Below, in pieces: positions 27,801-64,000 of a stretch of DNA of 64,000 bases. Position 1 is the stretch's first letter. Each line of letters opens with the position of its first letter. Source of the DNA: Vicugna vicugna (taxonomy: Eukaryota); assembly GCA_013265495.1 (NCBI GenBank), contig MU057398.1:434001-498000 (forward strand), given 5' to 3'. The position numbers were made by a program, and so were the translations under genes. The notes under the pieces are model-generated. The model had not been told where the DNA came from, ran no database searches, and was given only the letters and a program-made list of their open reading frames with translations.

Positions 27801-30800
27801 AGACATAGGGCCATCAGCTGCACCCAGAACCCTTCAAGTTCGGAGAGAGCAACCCTAGCTAGCTGAGCCATTGTCAAAAAAATCTATTAGAAAATGTAAG
27901 GTTGCGGGTGGTGTGTAGCTCAGTGGTAGAGCATGTGCTTAGCCATGCACAGAAGTCCTGGGTTCAATCCCCAGTCCCTCCTTTAAAAAATAAACAAAGA
28001 AACCTAATTACACCACCCTCCCCCCCAAAATAGATGTTGCCTTCATCAAGTGTAAAACTCCTTCCTTTGGAACAATCCAGAAGAAATCCACTTTATCCTC
28101 CCAACACTTCACATACCTGAAAACCCACTTGAATTGTCCCACATCCCCCTAGCCCCTGTTCCCAGTGGCTTTCGCCTTCTCTAGGGCTCGGAGGCGGTCC
28201 CTGTTGGTCTGGCCACATGCCAGGCCCAATTCTTGGCCTCAGCTGGAAGCTACCTATGGCAGCCAATCCTGCCAGTTTCATAGGGCGCCACCCCACCTGA
28301 GACTGCGCTCTACTCAGGACTCTCCGCACAAGGGCACTCCCTACTGCTGAGATGGGCCCAAGTGGGCAGCCTTGTGGACCACAGTCCCAGCTGGGCTGGA
28401 AGTTGCTTTGCTTCCACTGAGGGCTCTGCAGAAAGGGGCCCCTGCCCTGCTGGGGACAGGGGCCATGAGCCTTAAGGTCCCAAGAGCAGTGGCCACCGCC
28501 GGACTCCGGGGCACCGGGGCACTAAGCTCCCCTCATGCTGGCCAAGCCCATCACAGAGCACGTGCTCCCGTCGGGAATCTTACCCCAGAGGATAAAACAG
28601 GCAACATTTGGGAGGAATTTGTCCATAACTATAACCTTGAAAATGTTCCTCATACCCTTTGATCCAGTAAATCTGCTCTAAGTAAGAGATCCTGAAACAA
28701 TAGGTATTACATGAATTACAAGGATGTTGAGAGCATTCATTATTTTTTTATTATGGTAAAATATACCTAACACAAAAGTTACCGTTTTAACCATTTCAAA
28801 GTGTACAATTCAGTGGCATTTAGTGCATTCACATAGGTATGCAACCATCGTGTCTATTAAATTCCAAGAAATTTTCATTCCCCCCAAAGGGAGGCCCCCT
28901 ACCCATTCTCTCCAAATTCACCCCAGCCCCCGGCACCACCTCCCCATCGCCTTTCTTCCCCTCTAGACATTTCATGTAAGTGGAGTCCGACAGCAGGCGG
29001 TCTGATGTGTCTGGCTTCTTTCCTTAGCATGGTTTCCAGGCCCATCCATATTACAGCAACTGCCAGGACACCATTCCTTTTATGCTGAATACCATTCCAT
29101 CGCATTCTACAATATTCCCTTGTGTGGATGGACCTCGCATTGTCAACAAACATTGGGTGGTTTCCACCTTTGGCGATTGTGAATCATGCTGCTATGAACA
29201 CAAGTCTTTGAATTCCTGTTTTCACATCTTTCGGGTGTATACCTAGAAATGAAGTCGCGTGGCCATATGGTCATTCTATATTGAATTTATTGAGGTATCA
29301 GCATTATTTGGGGGGGGTAATTCGGTTTATTTATTTATTCTTAATGGAGGTACTGGGGGTTGAACCCAGGACTTTGTGCATGCTAAGCATTCACTCTACC
29401 ACTGAGCTATACCTTCCTCGCCCCAGCATTATTCTTAATGCCAAAAACTTTACAACAATCTTAAGCCTGTGTCTACCTCATTTAAGTGTATAGCTGCCCT
29501 ACCAGAGTTTTCCAATAGCAAGTCTGTTTCTCAGAAGACATATAAAACGACACGTGGACTATGATGATTACCATATAAAATGCATGTTTATGGAAGAAGG
29601 CTGAGAAAGAATCCATTGATGGAAATGGAAATCTGAGATTTTTCTTTTTTCCAAACCTTATATAACATGGCTAAAAAGTCTTTTGAAAAAAATACATGTT
29701 TACAAACTTCAAAAAAAAATAGCACAGCTGGACAATTCTTGATATAAAATATTCAGCAGAAAGACCCGCTTGGATCAGCATCACCCCGATTCGGAGAGCA
29801 CGGATCTCCCAGTGGGAGGCAATCTGGCTCAGCTGGAGGCTGGGAGCGAGGTGTGAGACCACTGGGGCTTCATGCTGCCACCAGTGTGTGAGCTCCTAAG
29901 ATGCGTGGGGTTCGTGGGGCTTTTAAAACTATTTTTAATGGATGTACATGTTATGTATGTTCATTGGTATGTGTGTAAGTATAGAATATCACCCAATCAA
30001 TGCTCTCTTTTGGGGGGGGTAATTAGGTTTATTTATTTATAATTTTTTTTGAAGCCTAGGTGACATACAATGTTAGTTTCAGATGTACAGCGAAGTGATT
30101 CAGGTATACTTATACATACGTATATATTTTTTCTTCTCAGATTCTTTTCCATTGTATGTTATTACAAGAAATTAAATATAGCTCCCTGTGCTATACAGTA
30201 GGTCCTTGTCATTTATCTCTTTTATATATAGTAATGTGTGACTGTTAATCCCCAACCCTAATTTATCCGTCCCCTGCCCTTTCCCTTTTGGTAACCATAG
30301 TTTGTTTTCTATGTCCGTGAGGCTATTTTGGTTTGTAAATAGAATGTGCAAAAAAAAATTTATTTATTTAATGAAGGTACTGGGGATTGAACCCAGGACC
30401 TCGTGCATGCTAAACACATGCTCTGCCACCGAGCTTTACCCACCCCCGACCCAGTACTTTCTTTAAAGGACAGGAGGACATTCATGAGAACGGGCAGATG
30501 CTAGCAGTGGTTGGGTGTCTCTGGGAGTTAGTATTTATAAGGGGATTTTTCTTCTCTTTTTTGTTCTTTGCAGCCTTTTCTCCAATGAACATTACTTTTA
30601 CCATCAGAGAGAAGACATTCAAAAGCCACTCGCAGCCTGTGCTATGTTCTGAGTTTTTCTCACTTTCCCTGAGGACCCACTGGCTGCTTTGCGGGTCCCG
30701 GGACGCCCTGGCTGGGAGGGCAGCCTCTGGACTCAGGCCCCCCTGGGTGCTGATTCAGGGGAAACAGTGGCAATCAAGTCCCATCAGATGTCACATCCAG

Positions 30801-55361: not shown

Positions 55362-55839
55362 GAAAGATTTCTTAAATAGGACACAAAAGTACTAACCATA
55401 GGAGAATATATTGATAAATTAGTGTTTTCTGAGCTCTGAGGGCACTCAGCCAATTCGTTATTCTTCATGTCTTCAATGCATCTCTCCCCGCCCCCTGCAG
55501 TGTGACTTCTGCTCAGTTCCCATTCTCTTTACCCTCCTCCCCACCTCCCAGCCTGCCGCCCTACATCTCCAAGCTCTTGCTTTGTGCAAGGCATGTAGAA
55601 GAACCACTACTGGATGAGTTCCTCACCTACAGAAGCATACTTTGTTTCTGGTGTTTTCTGAGATTTGCTTCCCCTTGGTTGCTTTGCTGTGCTGTTCACA
55701 TATTAATTGCAGGTATCCCCTACATGGCTTCTGTTCTGTGTCCCTCCGATGTTCCCCAGGTCCTATGGCTCTTGCTGTCTGCAAGGGAGATTGGTTATAC
55801 CACTTTAGAGTGAACTCCGTACTTAGACAAAGTTCATTG

Positions 55840-56353
55840 TGTGAAGGAAAAGCCCAGCTGGGCTAACAAGCTAAGTCACAAATCTAAGTGCAACAAGTGT
55901 CGGATTACTGATCTGAGTTCTGCTGGGCTAACTCATAAATCTGAAGTTTAGTGTCAGTCTATTGGGCTAACGAGCTCAGTCACAAATCTAAGTGTGATAA
56001 GTGTCGGTTTACTGATATAAGTTCTGCCGGGCTAACTTGTAAATCTAAAGTTTAGTGTCAGTTTACTGGGCTAACAAGCTAACTCGTAAATCCAAGCTCA
56101 ACAAGTGTCAGTAACGTGATCTGTTCCAAATTGATAAGCTCCAGTGTACTGATTCCTTGCTTTTTGTTGTTTGAACCTTATTGGCTAATAGCCCCATACT
56201 TGTAATTAACCCTATAAAACCTCATGTGCACGTCTTGGAGGTGCTCAGAGCTTCGGAGCAGAAGCCCCTCTGAGCCCGCCGGCGTAATAAATCTGAGTAC
56301 TCCAACCCTCCGAGTGGTGCTTGTTTCTTGGCTGGCCTGTCATTTCCGTAACA
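55840..56353 (+). promoter_or_regulatory. Proviral 5' LTR (514 bp)
   Basis: Imperfect inverted termini, a 104-bp tandem repeat in U3 (55859-55962 and 55963-56066), ATTGG 56180-56184, TATAAAA 56213-56219 and AATAAA 56286-56291. Confidence 0.93.
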
Positions 56354-56357
56354 TTTC

Positions 56358-56375
56358 TGGAGGCCCCAGCGAGAT
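56358..56375 (+). other. Primer binding site complementary to tRNA-Thr(UGU)
   Basis: TGGAGGCCCCAGCGAGAT, 4 nt after the LTR CA. It is the reverse complement of the mammalian tRNA-Thr(TGT) 3' end as recalled (ATCTCGCTGGGGCCTCCA). Confidence 0.85.
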
Positions 56376-57633
56376 ACAACCACGCCGGCCCCTTGAGCCG
56401 CTGGACTGGTGGCTCCGGCCGACCGGGGGACGGGACTCCGGCAGCGAACGAGGAGGCGCCACCCGACAGTATTCCGGGTTCTCTTTCGTGACGGCAACTC
56501 GGCCCCCCGGGTGGCTGGGCTACAACCAGAGCCAGACTCCGTGGAGGGACGGACAGACTCACCAGGTGGCCGTCCGGACAAGGTAGGATCCCCCGGGAGG
56601 AATCAGGTCCTGTCCCATTGGACAGAAGAGGAGGCTGATCCCCTCCTACAGGCTCTCCGTCTGATGGTAACTCAGACGGGGAAATCAGGAATCAGGTCAG
56701 GAATCAGGTCCTGTCCCAGTGGACAGAAGAGGAGGCTGATCCCCTCCTACAGGAAATAGGATATTGGTATTGGTGGGAGGAATGTTGTTAACCTCTGTGT
56801 GTGTGTGTATGTGTGAGTGAATGAGCGGCCTGTGAAGCATGCGATCAGGCTCGAGTTTGTAGCTCCACGGCATTCTGCTACGGAGTTCGAGTGAGTCCCA
56901 ACCTGCGGTTCCGTGGTGACCTCATACGGCTCAGGGCGGTATCGGTCCCTCAGGGTCCCGATCGGAGTCAGCGGCTTATACTGACCCGCCAAAGCTAAGA
57001 GGCACCTTCGTCCCCGCGAGGGGAGCGGCCAGGCGGACGCAACGAAAACCCTCCCTTGTCTTGTCTGCGACACCGGCACAGGGTGGCTACACTGGGAGGG
57101 AAAAGGACATAGCCAATGAGTCAACGCCCCTGTGCCCTTGGAGGCTAGGATGCTATTTCTTTGAGAAAGTCTCCTACCTGACTCTGTCACAGAACACCCG
57201 AGACTTATTGTTCCCCTACTGAACTGACCCAAGTAGTGCCCCTTTTGCCTAGCCCCAGACACCCAGGACGTAAGTTTAGAAGACGAATTCCTTCAGGACC
57301 GGGCTTGCCCAGCCCTGGAGGTCCCTTTTCTAGTCCATTTGTTTTGCCATCTGCCGTCAGTCCCACGCCCCTGATACGTTAGTTCAGAATATAGAGAGGA
57401 TTTAATGAAGAAAGTCCCTGAAACTGCTTGAGGCCTTGAGATCCAGAGACATCAGCTGAGACTGGAACCCAGAGTCCCTGACCAAGTTAGCCTTAAAACA
57501 ACTCATAGACCCAGCAAGAGAGCAGTCTCTCTGGGAACTCCGGTGTTTTGAAGAGTGAAGAAGAAAAAGATATAAAGGCTACCTTCCCAAACATCTAAAG
57601 CAACAGAACTATTATCCTTAAATATCTAAAAGA

Positions 57634-59220
57634 ATGGGAGGCTCTAAGTCAAAACCCACCACTCTAGACTGCATGATTAAGAATTTCAAAAAGGGGTTCT
57701 CAGGAGACTATGGAATTCGAATGACCCCTGGCAGGCTGCGCACTTTGTGTGAGCTTGAATGGACTGCCTTTGGAGTCGGGTGGCCCTCAGGAGGAACTCT
57801 GGACCTAGCAACAGTGCGAGCAGTCTATCAAATAATCACTGGAACCCCAGGCCACCCAGATCAATTCCCTTACATTGACTCCTGGCTGAATATCGCCCAG
57901 ACTCTACCCCCATGGATTCGGTTTTGCTCAAATGGACCTGGACAATGCAAGATATTAGCAGCTCAGCCAGTCCAGGCCAAAAAGACAGACAGAAAAAAAC
58001 CGATTTTCCAGGGAGACGCAGAAGACGAGATATGCCTGCCCCCTCCATATGCCCCCAAGGCACAAACACCTCCAGTCCCATTGGAGACACCACCACCCTC
58101 TGTGTCACCACCTCCCCAACCTGAGGACCCAGAGGCAGAACTCAGCCCCCAGCCTGAGCCGGTAGGAAGGAGACTCCGCTCAGCACAAGCCGTGAAGCCA
58201 GCACCACCGGCCCTCCAAATGCCGCTGCGGGAGACACAAGGGCCACAGCAAGTTGGGGAAGACGGGACTGTTCAGCCTGGGCACCCCGTACTCTACTACC
58301 AACCCTTTAGCACCACAGACCTTCTCAATTGGCGCCATCACACTCCTTCCTACTCTGAAAAGCCACAGGCTATGATTGACCTCATAGAGTCTATCTTCCA
58401 TTCTCACCGGCCCACCTGGGAAGATGTCCGCCAGCTGCTTCTGACTCTTTTCAATACAGAGGAGAGGAGACGCATTCTCACTGAAGCACGAAAATGGCTG
58501 CAGGGCCGAGCCCCTGGGGACACAATGGATGTTGAGGCGTGGGCCATGACACGTGCCCCTGACACCAGACCAGATTGGGACTTTAACACTCAAGAAGGAA
58601 GAGAAGCACTACGTGAGTACCGGGAGGCCATCCTACAAGGGCTAAAAGCAGGAGCCAAGAAGCCAACTAACATGTCTAAAACGACCACAGTGACCCAGAG
58701 GCCAGACGAAACCCCCACTGACTTCTATGAGAGACTGTGTGAAGCATTCCGAGTCTACACTCCTTTTGATCCTGAGGCCCAAGAAAACCAACGGATGGTC
58801 AACGCTGCCTTCGTAGCCCAATCATACCCAGATATACGCCGGAAACTCCAAAAACTGGATGGATTCGCAGGGATGAACGCTACACAGCTGCTGGAAGTAG
58901 CAAACAAAGTTTTTGTAAACCGAGAACGGGAAGCCCAACGAGAAGCAGACCAGCGAATGAAGCAGAAAGCCGCGCTCCTTGCAGCAGCCCTGGGGAAAAC
59001 AGGCTTCAGCCAGAACCCTGCACCACCCCGGAAGAGGGGACCCCAACCATGGATGCCCCTGGGCCGAGACCAATGTGCATACTGCCGGGAGACTGGGCAC
59101 TGGAAGAACGAGTGCCCAAACAGAAAGGATGGAAAGAGAGCACTCCCTAAAAGGCCTACTTATCAGCTGGAGCCACCAGCCAGTAATCACATCGGACTGG
59201 CTGGGGTTAACTCAGAATAG
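57634..59220 (+). CDS. gag: Retroviral Gag, 528 aa
   Basis: Myristoylation-type start MGGSKSK, PPPY late domain, major homology region (QRPDETPTDFYERL) and one CCHC knuckle CAYCRETGHWKNEC. Ends in TAG. Confidence 0.96.
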   Translation: MGGSKSKPTTLDCMIKNFKKGFSGDYGIRMTPGRLRTLCELEWTAFGVGWPSGGTLDLATVRAVYQIITGTPGHPDQFPYIDSWLNIAQTLPPWIRFCSNGPGQCKILAAQPVQAKKTDRKKPIFQGDAEDEICLPPPYAPKAQTPPVPLETPPPSVSPPPQPEDPEAELSPQPEPVGRRLRSAQAVKPAPPALQMPLRETQGPQQVGEDGTVQPGHPVLYYQPFSTTDLLNWRHHTPSYSEKPQAMIDLIESIFHSHRPTWEDVRQLLLTLFNTEERRRILTEARKWLQGRAPGDTMDVEAWAMTRAPDTRPDWDFNTQEGREALREYREAILQGLKAGAKKPTNMSKTTTVTQRPDETPTDFYERLCEAFRVYTPFDPEAQENQRMVNAAFVAQSYPDIRRKLQKLDGFAGMNATQLLEVANKVFVNREREAQREADQRMKQKAALLAAALGKTGFSQNPAPPRKRGPQPWMPLGRDQCAYCRETGHWKNECPNRKDGKRALPKRPTYQLEPPASNHIGLAGVNSE

Positions 59221-59284
59221 GAGAGACCGGGCTCCCTGCCCCTGGGCCCCCGGGAGCCCAAGGTCAAGATGTTTATAGGGGGCC
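59218..59284 (+). promoter_or_regulatory. gag-pol readthrough signal (UAG, 8-nt spacer, pseudoknot)
   Basis: S1 is GGGCTCCC 59229-59236 with GGGAGCCC 59252-59259. S2 is GGCCCCC 59245-59251 with GGGGGCC 59278-59284. Loop 2 is 18 nt. Confidence 0.88.
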
Positions 59285-62200
59285 AACCAATGACTTTTAT
59301 GGTAGACACAGGAGCAGAGTATTCTGTGGTGACCCAACCTGTAGCCCCCCTGACCAAAAAAAAGGCGACTATTATTGGGGCTACTGGGGACTCAACTGCC
59401 CGCCATTTCTGCCAACCACGATCCTGTCAAGTAGGGGGCCATCTAGTGACACATGAATTTTTATATTTGCCTGAATGCCCAATACCATTGCTTGGAAGAG
59501 ACCTTCTGTCTAAATTGGGGGCACAAATTACCTTTGTCCCCGGGAAACAGGCACATCTGACCCTACAGGGAGAGTCTATGATTCTAGCCATCTCAGTTCC
59601 CCGAGAAGAAGAGTGGCGTCTGTATGAGAGCAGAGAACTCCAGGAAAATCCTTGCAAACTCCTGGAAGAGTTTCCATTAGTCTGGGCTGAAAATGGACCA
59701 CCAGGCTTGGCACATAATCAGGCACCACTGGTGATTGACCTCAAACCTGGAGCCAGCCCAGTCAGACAGAAGCAATATCCCATGCCTCGAGAGGCCCACC
59801 TAGGAATCCAGAAGCATATACAGCGCCTCAGACAAGAGGGAATCCTAACTGAGTGCAGATCTCCCTGGAACACACCGTTGCTCCCAGTGAAGAAAGCAGA
59901 AGGAACAGATTATAGGCCAGTGCAGGACTTACGAAAAGTAAATGAAGTAGTCACTACAATACATTCAGCAGTGCCAAATCCATACACTCTTCTGGGCCTC
60001 ATTCCGGCAGATGCCAAATGGTTTACATGCCTAGACCTTAAAGATGCTTTCTTCTGTCTTCGACTCTCACCTGTGAGCCAGCCCATATTCGCATTTGAAT
60101 GGGAGGATCCCCATACAGGAGGAAAAACTCAACTGACATGGACACGTCTCCCCCAAGGCTTTAAAAACTCGCCCACCTTGTTCGGAGAGGCACTAGCCGC
60201 AGACCTTGTAAAATTCCCTGGGGAAACATTGAACTGTACTCTGCTCCAGTATGTGGATGACTTGCTGTTAGCCAGCCCCAGTGAAGAGGACTGTTGGAAA
60301 GGAACTCGAGCCCTCCTAGGGTTACTCCAAACAACTGGGTACAAGGTCTCATGGAAAAAGGCCCAGATCTGCAAAAAGACAGTCAAATACTTGGGATTTA
60401 TTATCTCAGAGGGACACCGAGCCCTAGGACCAGAACGAAAACAAGTTATTTGTGCCATACCCAGACCGGAAACAAAAAGGAAACTGAGAGAGTTCCTGGG
60501 CGCAGCTGGGTTTTGCCGGATCTGGATCCCCGGATTTTCAAGAATAGCCAAGCCCCTCTACGAAGCAACTGCTGGATCAGGAAAAGAAACCCTCAAATGG
60601 GAAACTAAACAAGAAAATGCCTTTAGGCAATTAAAGGAACTACTAACCCAAGCCCCAGCACTAGGCTTACCAGATGTAACACGAGAGTTTAATCTGTTTG
60701 TACATGAAAGAGACCAAACTGCTCTTGGAGTCCTAACTCAGAATGTGGGGCCATGGCAGCGCCCTGTGGCTTATTTATCTAAAAGACTGGACCCTGTAGC
60801 ATCAGGATGGCCACCCTGTTTACGGGCCCTCGCTGCCACAGCCCTCCTGGTCAATGAGGCAGACAAACTCACACTGGGACAGACTTTAAATGTAAAAGTG
60901 CCCCATTCTGTGGTGGCCCTGATGAATGGCCCAGGTTACAAATGGATAACTAACACAAGGATGACCCACTACCAGGGGCTTCTATGTGAAAATCCAAGAG
61001 TCCGTCTAGAGACTGTGCAAACCTTAAACCCAGCCACATATTTGCCTGAAGGGGAAGGGCAGCCTGACCACAACTGCGAAGAAATCGTTGAAGAGGTGTA
61101 TGCAAGCAGGCCTGATCTAACCGACAAGCCCCTGCAAAACCCAGACCTGGAACTTTTCACAGACGGCAGCAGTTACATGCAAGATGGACAACGGCGAGCA
61201 GGTTACGCTGTAACAACAACCCGAGAGGTAATAAAGGCAGAGTCCCTTCCCCCAGGATGGTCTGCTCAGCGAGCAGAGATCTGGGCACTGGTCCAGGCAC
61301 TAAGGGAAGGGAAAGGAAAACGAGTCAATATATACACTGATTCCAAATATGCATTTGCAACCTTGCATGTACATGGAGCCATCTATAAGGAGAGAGGACT
61401 TTTGACTGCTGGGGGAAAAGAAATCAAAAACAAAGAAGAAATTTTACAGTTACTGGAGGCAGTATGGGATCCAAAGGAAGTGGCCGTTATTCACTGTAAG
61501 GGACATCAAAGAGGAAATGACCCTGTGAGCCAGGGGAACAGGCTAGCTGATCAAAAGGCAAGAGAAGCAGCCGCCTGGGAACACTCAGTAATTAAAGTTA
61601 TGGCAGCGCCAGAGCTACCCACTGCCCCAGAATATAGTCATGATGAAAACAAGTGGGCACAGGCTGAACGAGGAGAGAAAAGAAAGGACGGATGGTGGAT
61701 CATGACGGATGGAAGGGTTTTCATCCCAGAACGACTAGCTTATCGTTTAGTCCAACAACAGCACGAAGCCACACATATGGGAAAAACAGCTTTAGAGGCC
61801 CTCTTAAAGCGATATTTCCTAATTTCTCGTCTCCCTACTCTATGTGCATCAGTTTCCCAACGCTGCTTGCTCTGTGCACAAAACAATCCAAAACAAGGGC
61901 TCACTGGGCCAATGGGAATACAACGATGTGGATTGGCTCCCTTTGAAGATTTAGAAGTGGACTTTACTGAACTTGGGCCCAGTAAGGGATATAAGTACCT
62001 GCTGGTTTTCGTCTGCACCTTCACAGGGTGGGTAGAGGCCTACCCCACCAGGACAGAGAAAGCAAGGGAAGTGACAAAGGCTCTTCTCAGGGATGTTATC
62101 CCTCGATTTGGAATGCCTACCTCCATCGGGTCTGACAATGGACCCGCCTTTGTGTCAGAAATTGTACAGCAAGTGGCAAAGGCACTGAGCATCCGCTGGA

Positions 62201-62856
62201 ACCTACACACAGCATACCGGCCTCAAAGCTCAGGGAAAGTAGAACGAATGAACAGAACTCTAAAACAAATTATAGCTAAAATCAGCCAAGAAACCCAGCT
62301 TCCCTGGGTGGACATTCTACCCCTGGCTCTGTTGCGAATTAGATGCACCCCAAGATTTAATATTGGGTACTCTCCCTTTGAAATCCTCTATGGGCGACCG
62401 CCACCTTTAGTCAGGATGAGAAACCCCACCCCAGAAATAGGAAATCTAGGGCTCCACCAACAACTGTTGGGACTAGGAAAAGTACTACGAGAAGTTTGGG
62501 GTTGGGTGATAGAGAAAACCCCCATTTCATTAGGGGTTCAAGTGCATCCCCATAAACCAGGTGACCAGGTATGGGTGAAGGATTGGAAAAAGGAACCTCT
62601 CAAACCAACATGGAAGGGACCATATTTAGTGGTATTAACTACTCCTACAGCTGTTAAAGTTGCAGGAATCGTCCCTTGGATCCACCACTCCAGAGTCAAG
62701 AGAGCAACTGCACCTCAGACAGAGGGTCCCTGGAAAATTGAGAGTGTCCCGGGAGACCCGCTCAAGATCAAGATCAAGAGGGACCAGAAAAGGATCGACG
62801 AGCCCTGCTCTAGCCACACCCGGAAGCTGGCTAGTCAACGCACGGCCGAAGCTTGA
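59221..62856 (+). CDS. pol: Retroviral Pro-Pol, in frame with gag via UAG readthrough
   Basis: Protease VDTGA, RT LPQG and YVDD, RNase H FTDGS and YTDS, integrase HHCC with D-D-E (VDFT, SDNG, VERMN), and GPY. No interruptions. Confidence 0.97.
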   Translation, partial: ERPGSLPLGPREPKVKMFIGGQPMTFMVDTGAEYSVVTQPVAPLTKKKATIIGATGDSTARHFCQPRSCQVGGHLVTHEFLYLPECPIPLLGRDLLSKLGAQITFVPGKQAHLTLQGESMILAISVPREEEWRLYESRELQENPCKLLEEFPLVWAENGPPGLAHNQAPLVIDLKPGASPVRQKQYPMPREAHLGIQKHIQRLRQEGILTECRSPWNTPLLPVKKAEGTDYRPVQDLRKVNEVVTTIHSAVPNPYTLLGLIPADAKWFTCLDLKDAFFCLRLSPVSQPIFAFEWEDPHTGGKTQLTWTRLPQGFKNSPTLFGEALAADLVKFPGETLNCTLLQYVDDLLLASPSEEDCWKGTRALLGLLQTTGYKVSWKKAQICKKTVKYLGFIISEGHRALGPERKQVICAIPRPETKRKLREFLGAAGFCRIWIPGFSRIAKPLYEATAGSGKETLKWETKQENAFRQLKELLTQAPALGLPDVTREFNLFVHERDQTALGVLTQNVGPWQRPVAYLSKRLDPVASGWPPCLRALAATALLVNEADKLTLGQTLNVKVPHSVVALMNGPGYKWITNTRMTHYQGLLCENPRVRLETVQTLNPATYLPEGEGQPDHNCEEIVEEVYASRPDLTDKPLQNPDLELFTDGSSYMQDGQRRAGYAVTTTREVIKAESLPPGWSAQRAEIWALVQALREGKGKRVNIYTDSKYAFATLHVHGAIYKERGLLTAGGKEIKNKEEILQLLEAVWDPKEVAVIHCKGHQRGNDPVSQGNRLADQKAREAAAWEHSVIKVMAAPELPTAPEYSHDENKWAQAERGEKRKDGWWIMTDGRVFIPERLAYRLVQQQHEATHMGKTALEALLKRYFLISRLPTLCASVSQRCLLCAQNNPKQGLTGPMGIQRCGLAPFEDLEVDFTELGPSKGYKYLLVFVCTFTGWVEAYPTRTEKAREVTKALLRDVIPRFGMPTSIGSDNGPAFVSEIVQQVAKALSIRWNLHTAYRPQSSGKVERMNRTLKQIIAKISQETQLPWVDILPLALLRIRCTPRFNIGYSPFEILYGRPPPLVRMRNPTPEIGNLGLHQQLLGLGKVLREVWGWVIEKTPISLGVQVHPHKPGDQVWVKDWKKEPLKPTWKGPYLVVLTTPTAVKVAGIVPWIHHSRVKRATAPQTEGPWKIESVPGDPLKIKIKRDQKRIDEPCSSHTRKLASQRTAEA

Positions 62857-63043
62857 GGAAAGCCCAACGCAGCTGTTAAATATATTTCTTTTGTGCTCCC
62901 TTGCCTCTTTCCTTGTTTTCTATACCAGTCTGCGTACTAGCAGTGGGGCTAGCTAGCGCCACCCCACCTGACTGGAACATAGGCCATAAAATCCTGATAG
63001 CTATTTTATATCTTCTTATAATTAGTGCCATCACCGCAGCATC

Positions 63044-64000
63044 ATGTCTAAGATAATCATAAGGCTGATGTTACTAATGCTAATGTCCTCACTCTCCTTG
63101 GCTGTACAGTGCACCTGCATGGAACCGGGTGACAGGTGGTCCATATACCGGCCTGTATTTTCAGCTTATACTTATCAGCCGAGTCAATGCTATGACTCCG
63201 CTTCAGAGTGCACATATCAGGGAAAATCCTACTGGATTGGCACAATTAAGGCTTATTATGTATCTAGCATCAAATGCTATGGCACACCCGGCAAGCTGGT
63301 GTGCTGGACCAAGCAAACACATTATGGGATGAGTGATGGAGGGGGCGTACAGGACCAGGCACGCCGGCAAGCAGTCCAACAAGCAGTCCAGAGGCAACAC
63401 CGGAAGTTATTACCTACCCGGAAGCCAATAAAACTTCCATCTTTAGCCGAGCCTCGGGATCTGGATCCACAAATAAATGGGCTGTTAGCCGCAGTCCATG
63501 GGATTCTCAATCATTCCAATCCAGACCTGGCTAAAGATTGCTGGCTATGCTTGCGTCCTGGCCCCATCCAGCACCTGGCTTTACCTCTGACAAACCTCAC
63601 TAAGACTTTCACCACAACTCATAGCGATGCCGTTTCTACCACTAGGAGTTCCAGGCTGAACTGGGTACAGCTCGCCTACAAGGCACCAGAATGTTATTTC
63701 AACAATGGAACTAATCCTTTAGAGGGCAATCTAACTATAAATCAATGTATTAAAACCTCTCACTGTATGGGTCTAGGGTGCCAACCCACACAAAGATGGT
63801 GTTCTAATAACGGGACTTATTTTGTATGTGGTGAATTTGCCTACCGGTGCCTCCCTGCCAGATGGGCAGGGTTATGTGCTTTGGCTTATCTCACTCCCCG
63901 AATGGACATTATGCCTAATAATCAAAGTCTGCCCATCCCTGTCATAACTCACCAGCATCCACGGAGAATAAAACGAGCTATACAATTGATCCCCTTGCTA
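63044..64000 (+). CDS. env: Retroviral Env: signal peptide, complete SU and start of TM, open to the window end
   Basis: Hand translation gives 319 codons with no stop: MSKIIIRLMLLMLMSSLSLAVQCTC...CWTKQTHYGMSDGGGVQDQAR (motif 63332-63364)...DCWLCL (CWLC 63539-63550)...RRIKR|AIQLIPLL (furin site 63965-63976). It is missing from the ORF track because no stop falls inside the window. Confidence 0.93.
   Translation, partial: MSKIIIRLMLLMLMSSLSLAVQCTCMEPGDRWSIYRPVFSAYTYQPSQCYDSASECTYQGKSYWIGTIKAYYVSSIKCYGTPGKLVCWTKQTHYGMSDGGGVQDQARRQAVQQAVQRQHRKLLPTRKPIKLPSLAEPRDLDPQINGLLAAVHGILNHSNPDLAKDCWLCLRPGPIQHLALPLTNLTKTFTTTHSDAVSTTRSSRLNWVQLAYKAPECYFNNGTNPLEGNLTINQCIKTSHCMGLGCQPTQRWCSNNGTYFVCGEFAYRCLPARWAGLCALAYLTPRMDIMPNNQSLPIPVITHQHPRRIKRAIQLIPLL

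Follow-up and report, generated by a model that had tools for sequence, protein, structure and literature searches.

Does a provirus in the genome of Vicugna vicugna combine core genes and an envelope gene of different retroviral descent, and if so, how old is the combination? The question is raised by positions 57634..64000 of a stretch of 64,000 nucleotides (NCBI GenBank assembly GCA_013265495.1, contig MU057398.1, positions 434,001 to 498,000 of the forward strand; hereafter the window). A sequence-only reading had described these positions as a chimeric virus with gag-pol like that of the human endogenous retrovirus (HERV) HERV-E or of ERV3, an env like that of HERV-W and of the RD114-and-D-type-retrovirus (RDR) group, and a threonine primer. 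They hold only part of the element; env runs 597 nt past the window and is followed by the 3΄ long terminal repeat (LTR). All parts of the element given in window coordinates lie on the plus strand. We consider the element to be a complete, very young provirus that is a gag-pol/env chimera relative to its kin, in which the exchange would be old and would predate the diversification of the family in camelid genomes; we assign this reading a probability of about 0.6.

The provirus is very young and complete, and its gag, pol and env are open. Over their 518 bp, the 5΄ LTR (55840..56357, TG...CA ends) and the 3΄ LTR, located just past the window end (L031 2071-2588), show 100% identity. Eight places in the 2.03-Gb assembly, the window's own included, match pol at 99.5–100%; the env frame is open in all eight of these near-identical copies and the pol frame in six. 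The flanks differ among all five sampled copies (the window's and four others), and 4-bp target duplications were present in both of the two other copies for which both flanks had been captured. Identical 9-kb repeats are difficult to assemble, and the copy in the window lacks a matching target duplication; both points would suit an assembly artefact in which the identical copies are collapsed or duplicated contigs. The differing flanks and the two clean 4-bp duplications argue against this explanation, as do contigs from independent public runs, which contain 90–93% of the sampled env-stretch words, and we regard an artefact as extremely improbable.

We determined the affinities of the core genes from their products. 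The gag gene (57634..59220, 528 aa, N-terminus MGGSKSKPTTLDCMIKNFKKGFSGDYGIRMTPGRLRTLCELEW) starts with the ATG at 57634 and ends with the TAG at 59218-59220; because its frame is closed upstream of 57622, an upstream extension of Gag is impossible. The pro-pol gene (59221..62856, 1211 codons, open, stop at 62854-62856) follows in the same frame as gag, from which only a single UAG separates it. The sequences quoted in the sequence-only reading are all present: the N-terminus of Gag, the C-terminus of Pol (RKLASQRTAEA) and the SDGGG of Env. Gag contains matrix (MA), PPPY, p30 capsid (CA) and a single CCHC knuckle (Pfam Gag_MA, 1e-14; Gag_p30, 1.6e-59; zf-CCHC), and Pol contains protease, reverse transcriptase (RT), RNase H and an integrase with a C-terminal domain of the type found in murine leukaemia virus (MLV) (Pfam RVP, RVT_1, RNase_H, rve and MLVIN_C); all these Gag and Pol matches exceed the cut-offs. 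The element belongs to a gammaretrovirus-like (class I) family of endogenous retroviruses. Gag is 99% identical to a protein labelled Vicugna pacos, and its weaker relatives are labelled Camelus. The identity of Pol is 50–52% to MLV, reticuloendotheliosis virus (REV) and porcine endogenous retrovirus B (PERV-B) over 84–97% of the length, and 53–63% to endogenous retroviruses (ERVs) whose hosts are squamates, amphibians, bats and one mole rat.

Scanning IMG/VR yielded 12 gammaretrovirus-like and 8 deltaretroviral genomes, which were named by exact env look-ups and by 96–98% identity to named Pol proteins. One whole viral-contig record of 8072 nt, a degraded ERV (IMGVR_UViG_2602041548_000001; hereafter L036), is 64% identical to the element in Pol (residues 2-1198), 47–57% in Gag and 31% over 132 aa in Env's transmembrane subunit (TM); its primer-binding site region starts TGGTGCATTGGCTGGGAA. 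We then computed a careful tree of RT residues 150-560 (36 rows by 410 columns), for which six rows had been set aside beforehand: one deltaretrovirus, two long branches and three near-duplicates of MLV type. In this tree, a crown clade composed of REV, RD114 and baboon endogenous virus (BaEV), MLV, feline leukaemia virus (FeLV), PERV-B, gibbon ape leukaemia virus (GALV) and koala retrovirus (KoRV) (support 100/100) excludes the element's family, which consists of the element, P0125, L026, L032 and L035 (100/99). The family is sister to L036 and an ERV of the bat Cnephaeus (100/98), and the whole forms a polytomy together with ERVs of squamates and amphibians. The identical split was seen in a quick tree of Gag, with the element outside the crown clade (99 by the Shimodaira–Hasegawa-like approximate likelihood ratio test, SH-aLRT). 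A constraint that united the family with REV, an echidna ERV, RD114 and BaEV in the RT tree cost 239 log-likelihood units and was rejected by the approximately unbiased (AU) test (p-AU 5.4e-6). The core genes fall outside the group of classical gammaretroviruses, and they probably come from an ERV3-like lineage. The more specific label HERV-E/ERV3 is unproven for gag-pol, being drawn solely from the env type of the nearest relative.

The primer-binding site (56358..56375, TGGAGGCCCCAGCGAGAT) is the complement of the 3΄ end of a tRNA-Thr(TGT) gene plus CCA, which bears out the threonine primer: its initial 3 bases pair with CCA, and the remaining 15 are complementary to the 3΄ end of the host tRNA-Thr(tgt) gene. 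The complement of these 15 bases occurs at five places in the host genome outside proviruses, and ARAGORN called a tRNA-Thr(tgt) ending at the match in two of the four loci scanned. HERV-E uses tRNA-Glu and ERV3 tRNA-Arg as primers; the site of the element, which matches tRNA-Thr(UGU), corresponds to neither.

The env gene begins with the ATG at 63044. The first 319 of its 517 codons occupy 63044..64000 and the remainder is found at L031 1501-2097, giving an open 517-aa frame in the contig whose final codons extend into the 3΄ LTR. The encoded Env has a signal peptide, CWLC (residue 166; 63539-63550), an RRIKR cleavage site (RIKR at 63965-63976), a fusion peptide, an immunosuppressive domain (ISD) and a CX6CC motif. 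In TM, NRRGLDLLTAKEGGL is followed by CLFLNEECC, and Env matches Pfam TLV_coat (1.8e-25). With CXXC in the surface subunit (SU), and the ISD and CX6CC in TM, the protein is a gamma-type Env. One source (PMC1524976) defines the receptor-binding domain (RBD) of the RDR group by the motifs PCXC, CYX5C, CX8-9CW and SDGGGX2DX2R. A short RBD of this type lies at 63107..63379 (env residues 22-112), and three of the four motifs are exact: CYDSASEC, CYGTPGKLVCW and SDGGGVQDQAR (residues 97-107; 63332-63364). In place of PCXC there is QCTC, with the proline changed and CXC kept. SU residues 36-305 align to the solved human Syncytin-1 (8ouh_D, E 3.5e-26), a 13-residue stretch (GMSDGGGVQDQAR) being identical, and the short RBD preceding the SDGGG linker aligns to Syncytin-1 50-145. 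The description of env as RDR/HERV-W-like is therefore upheld.

The SDGGG motif, found at residue 97 in the element, lies at 165-209 in 12 of 13 longer Envs that have it, including those of simian retrovirus (SRV), RD114, BaEV and Galidia; the Env of Delphinus has it at 122, and that of Talpa at residue 76. Extant RDR viruses carry a duplicated domain and Syncytin-1 a single one, as stated in a preprint (bioRxiv 10.1101/2024.03.17.585361); judged by its motifs and their spacing, the Env of the element carries the short, single-domain form of the Syncytin-1 type. Its best relatives, a Logan protein and a Camelus ferus 'syncytin-1', are 71% identical, and all others only 34–54%, among them SRV-1, -4 and -5, REV, a Galidia ERV, a prairie-dog retrovirus, the Trichosurus vulpecula ERV (TvERV) and Syncytin-Ory1. 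When solved TM structures were compared, Syncytin-1 gave the best match (107.5 bits), followed by Mason-Pfizer monkey virus (MPMV; 105.4), Syncytin-2 (85.2), xenotropic MLV-related virus (XMRV; 77.1) and Moloney MLV (56.8). Use of the receptors ASCT2/ASCT1, with interference between group members, is the defining feature of the RDR group and might by extension apply to this Env.

We next ask whether TM has the same history as RT. The TM motif of L036 is CX7CC, and every other readable TM, including that of the element, has CX6CC. According to the same preprint (bioRxiv 10.1101/2024.03.17.585361), CX7-9CC in TM marks the ERV3-1 (EnvR) supergroup, a feature that the TM of the element does not have. 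A library-wide search with the L036 TM found 912 relatives; among 10 long ones that were looked up, 6 clusters bear the name 'endogenous retrovirus group 3 member 1 Env polyprotein(-like)'. In a TM tree to which nine ERV3-like rows had been added, L036 fell inside the ERV3-like clade (99/97) and the family stayed with the CX6CC Envs; forcing the family and L036 alone together was rejected (p-AU 3.6e-51). The TM trees also placed the family outside the crown RDR clade (SRV/MPMV, REV, BaEV and RD114; 99/99), although a union with the RDR clade is not rejected when the SU C-domain and TM are taken together (p 0.276, see below). Separate RT, Gag and TM phylogenies, which had been proposed as a check of the chimera, are thus incongruent, in that the RT sister of the family is kept apart from it in TM. 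Because RT and TM disagree on L036 and the family, one of these two lineages exchanged its env.

The direction of the exchange is indicated by two relatives. Besides L036, a snake protein (P0171) with pol and env on one predicted protein and a CX6CC motif forms a long branch beside the ERV3-like TM clade (95/97). A pairing of the L036 and P0171 TMs in the first TM trees was distrusted, as the two are just 29% identical. Since L036 and P0171 lie in or beside the ERV3-like TM clade, we lean to the camelid lineage as the recipient: most likely, on evidence that is thin, it took up a foreign env. Such an exchange fits the view, given in PMC9967133 (citing Sinha and Johnson 2017), that RDR Env spread via many recombination events.

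Conversely, the camelid lineage might have captured nothing; its RDR-like env with CX6CC would then be original, the L036 lineage would have taken up an ERV3-like env, and the element would be an ordinary member of an old family with one vertical history. In favour of this alternative, all family members examined in the genome, down to an env of 48% aa identity, combine this gag-pol lineage with an env backbone that is related, and a Rhinolophus protein (gag 67%, pol 58%) ends in a CX6CC TM piece (58% over 64 aa); moreover, an env type could be read for two Pol relatives only. However, both env-linked relatives outside the camelid family, L036 and P0171, are in or beside the ERV3-like TM clade, and the Pol relatives extend across squamates and amphibians, which is also the host range of ERV3-like env relatives (compared as separate records, not as one element). 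We consider this alternative unlikely.

The time of the exchange can be approached from the region between pol and env. The sequence-only reading had placed a recombination junction near 62860-63040, in view of an env that starts 187 nt after the pol stop instead of overlapping pol as in MLV. The gap is present (spacer, 62857..63043, 187 nt, between the pol stop and the env ATG) and the contrast is real: of 11 reference gammaretrovirus genomes, nine (five MLV-type genomes, FeLV, GALV, KoRV and REV) have the env ATG upstream of the pol stop, and two, RD114 (34 nt) and BaEV (66 nt), have it downstream. As RD114 and BaEV are the two RDR-env recombinants among these references, their non-overlapping pol and env could be taken to favour a recent env capture with its junction at 62860-63040, and nucleotide similarity to L036 ends ~155 nt before the pol stop. 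The siblings of the element indicate otherwise. L032 is 75.5% identical to the element in pol and 75.2% through the pol end, spacer and env at the nucleotide level, and the two align collinearly in one piece; windows of 200 nt give identities of 68–84% without a break at 62860-63040, and the spacer itself gives 69–75%. L032 carries SDGGGAQDQARR. Two further siblings, at 93% and 95% nucleotide identity, are likewise flat across the interval.

We also examined 30 loci fetched around pol matches, the window's own among them. In 12 the env of the element was present throughout the fetched part, 16 had internal env deletions, 1 was truncated and 1 (L026) had a different N-terminal SU segment. Leaving aside the window's own locus, 29 remain: 11 share the env of the element, 16 carry it with internal deletions, one locus is truncated and L026 has its unique SU segment. 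None has a foreign env, so that siblings with the same pol and a different env, for which a search had been proposed, were missing among them. Moreover, part of 62860-63040 is homologous to the env start of an older lineage, as described below. We therefore regard a recent capture as very improbable. Of the earlier claim of an env-capture chimera, the differing affinities of gag-pol and env stand, and the recency does not, given the flat collinearity with a sibling at 75%; the direction of the capture we infer from the trees. The collinear siblings with flat identity imply that the exchange is old and cannot be traced to 62860-63040. The env of L032 is 95% identical to the Camelus ferus protein, so that the pairing of this gag-pol with this env is common to camelid genera. 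In the more distant siblings L033-L035, env is 48–57% identical (aa, from residue 136 on) and the upstream gag and pol are 50–56% and 44–73% identical, respectively; gag and pol of these siblings are closer to the element than to MLV, REV, PERV-B or P0121.

The spacer may itself record an earlier state. Its third frame contains a hydrophobic open stretch of 58 codons (62880..63056), in which the start codon that two siblings carry at the corresponding position is missing. The translation matches the N-terminus of a frame in L035 (53 aa, 38%, E 2.4e-12 in a small search with no composition correction), and this L035 frame continues into SU with one stop; the stretch is also found in L026, L033 and L034. 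Given its similarity to the L035 env start, the gap looks like what is left of an env start that is older. The spacer also contains a candidate env splice acceptor, a pyrimidine-rich tract with AG at its end (~62884-62929).

Variation among the siblings is concentrated at the N-terminus of SU, which exists in three forms on one backbone: an old form (L033-L035), the RDR-type form (the element, L032 and the Camelus protein) and the unique segment of L026. L026, whose RT is 84% identical to that of the element (aa), keeps the signal peptide, the SU C-domain and TM, and its RBD is replaced by a unique 163-nt segment (L026 1105-1268, minus strand) that is open, acidic and proline-rich and encodes 55 residues. 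This segment was rejected as a lineage marker, since L026 is the only place in the genome where it is found. No counterpart of the RBD was found in L026 or L033-L035 at E up to 10. We propose from these comparisons that the N-terminal SU module has repeatedly been replaced in the family.

These observations raise the possibility that only the receptor-binding module is foreign, that is, that a signal peptide, a short RDR domain and the SDGGG linker were grafted on an older backbone of SU C-domain (SU-C) and TM, of the type of Syncytin-2, Syncytin-B and several further Envs, at the stem of the young lineage. This would be compatible with an old chimera as preferred here. The RBD has its best match in the Talpa Env (55% over 70 aa) and does not match P0003, P0005 or P0037, which are the best matches of TM (56–62%, vs 43–50% for RDR Envs) and also the closest relatives of SU-C. 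In a careful tree of SU-C and TM, the family groups with P0003, P0005, P0037, Syncytin-2 and Syncytin-B (97/95), apart from Talpa and the RDR Envs (98/93). The absence of such a domain from L033-L035 and L026 and the relic of an older env start in the spacer also favour a graft, as does the RBD being the most conserved part of env between the element and L032 (80–84%, vs 67–80% elsewhere); such module transfers are described in bioRxiv 10.1101/2024.03.17.585361. However, the AU test does not reject a grouping of the young lineage with the RDR clade in the SU-C and TM tree (p 0.276), and the trees do not include human Syncytin-1, whose domain is of the same type and whose TM is the best match among the solved ones. 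One loss in the old siblings and another in L026 would also explain the pattern. We regard a graft of the module alone as possible, but tentative.

Taken together, we propose the following course for the old exchange. The core genes would derive from a lineage outside the classical gammaretroviruses whose nearest relative with a readable env has an ERV3-1-like one, and the element's own env would belong to the main CX6CC group, with a short Syncytin-1-like RDR-type domain. This lineage would have taken up the foreign env before the family diversified in camelid genomes; after this old exchange only the N-terminal SU module would have kept being replaced, and the 187-nt gap would largely be a leftover of the earlier env start. 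In the present provirus, tRNA-Thr(UGU) would serve as the primer, Pol would be made via readthrough of the gag UAG, and the gamma-type Env would presumably be expressed from a spliced mRNA with its acceptor in the pol-env spacer.

Several results weigh against this proposal. With respect to the trees, they were built without named HERV-E, ERV3 or HERV-W gag-pol or full env sequences; the groups for the AU tests were all named after the trees had been seen; before the ERV3-like rows were added, a grouping of the family with L036 in TM was not rejected (p-AU 0.27); and after their addition, a grouping of the family with the whole ERV3-like clade was only marginally disfavoured (p-AU 0.064). The direction of the exchange is read from only two env-linked relatives, L036 and P0171. 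With respect to the provirus, the candidate gag-pol readthrough signal (59218..59285), an Rfam GP_knot1 match that begins exactly at the TAG, scores 25.8 bits (E 0.059), far under the gathering score of 67.7. The positions preceding the 5΄ LTR read ATTG (55836-55839) and those following the 3΄ LTR TTTC (L031 2589-2592), so that a matching target-site duplication is missing from the copy in the window; this could have been caused by two proviruses recombining or by an assembly mis-join. Finally, no env donor-acceptor joint was found over 55840-64000 in contigs of three RNA-labelled runs or in the raw reads of one run.

Contigs of these three runs match the family at 95–99% across 55840-64000, matches that do not show transcription. 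A joint from 57977 to 60372, found in one contig of run X1 (labelled RNA by guess only), was rejected as a splice, as it equals a genomic deletion variant present at nine loci. The depth of RNA-library contigs was far highest over the LTR.

Within the 5΄ LTR, U3 contains a 104-nt unit repeated three times in tandem (55858-56123), and a TATA-like box and an AATAAA are found at ~56213 and ~56287, respectively. The leader (56376..57633) is unusually long, ~1.26 kb, and includes a 55-nt direct repeat (56598-56652 and 56699-56753, spaced by 101 nt). A deletion of 57991-60372, from gag into RT, together with an internal env deletion is common to at least nine copies (L021-L025 and L027-L030), a subfamily that looks like a non-autonomous derivative that multiplied. 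In L010 (5337-6520), pol is 94% identical to the element and the 3΄ half of env and the LTR just 83%, which suggests recombination between family lineages. At G000:C3182:2581819-2583210, an env copy that is 98% identical from residue 54 on lies in a stop-free frame of 1926 codons; this length could span pol and part of gag, and the copy may be an in-frame fusion. In the window, ~25 kb upstream of the provirus (27910-30443), ARAGORN reported three tRNA-like sequences, two of them tRNA-Ala(agc) and one with a four-base anticodon call.

We compared the element with retroviruses of known structure. HERV-W is a class I ERV outside the classical gammaretroviruses that carries Syncytin-1. Like HERV-W, the element has a gamma-type Env in which one short RDR-type domain at the N-terminus precedes SDGGGX2DX2R, and Syncytin-1 is its best solved TM match. 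The likeness was observed in env, and the first motif of the element is QCTC instead of PCXC. Unlike HERV-W, the element has open gag, pol and env, identical LTRs, several near-identical copies and a threonine primer. RD114 and BaEV likewise combine a gammaretroviral gag-pol with an RDR-type env whose ATG is downstream of the pol stop; however, their RT belongs to the crown clade, their TM (CLALQEKCC) falls within the crown RDR clade and their SDGGG is at 165-166 (the long form), whereas in the element both RT and TM are outside the crown clades and the domain is short. REV has a gamma-type layout, an RDR-group env and a Pol 52% identical to that of the element, but its RT is in the crown clade, its TM is in the crown RDR clade and its env overlaps pol. 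The resemblance to ERV3-1 (HERV-R)/EnvR comes through L036, the RT sister of the family, whose CX7CC TM groups with ERV3-1 Env-like proteins; the env of the element itself has CX6CC and lies outside the ERV3-like TM clade. As in KoRV, a retrovirus caught endogenising, multiple near-identical, open-framed proviruses with identical LTRs occur in one genome. KoRV differs in having an RT of the crown clade and a type-C env, and the comparison covers, for the element, the proviruses of one genome.

No description of this camelid ERV was found in the literature searched, a search that did not extend to preprint supplements, which possibly list camelid Envs. The movement of RDR-type envelopes between retroviral lineages is already known, and one more carrier leaves this picture unchanged. 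The element is, however, very young and open-framed in a domestic-animal lineage, in which no ERV of such a kind was found described. It might even represent a retrovirus that is still spreading, or was until very recently, in South American camelids, and the first apparently intact virus with a short Syncytin-1-type RDR domain, otherwise known only from fossil envelope genes; the domain would be joined to ERV3-like core genes, and the family would exchange its receptor-binding module like a cassette. We hold this wider view to be doubtful at present. Within one genome, the family forms a graded series from 100% to <50% identity, in which the core genes and the env backbone co-diverge and the N-terminal module differs. 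Such a series could allow the exchange of a gamma-type Env module to be dated and traced within one host lineage, and could help to explain the origin of the Syncytin-1-type domain.

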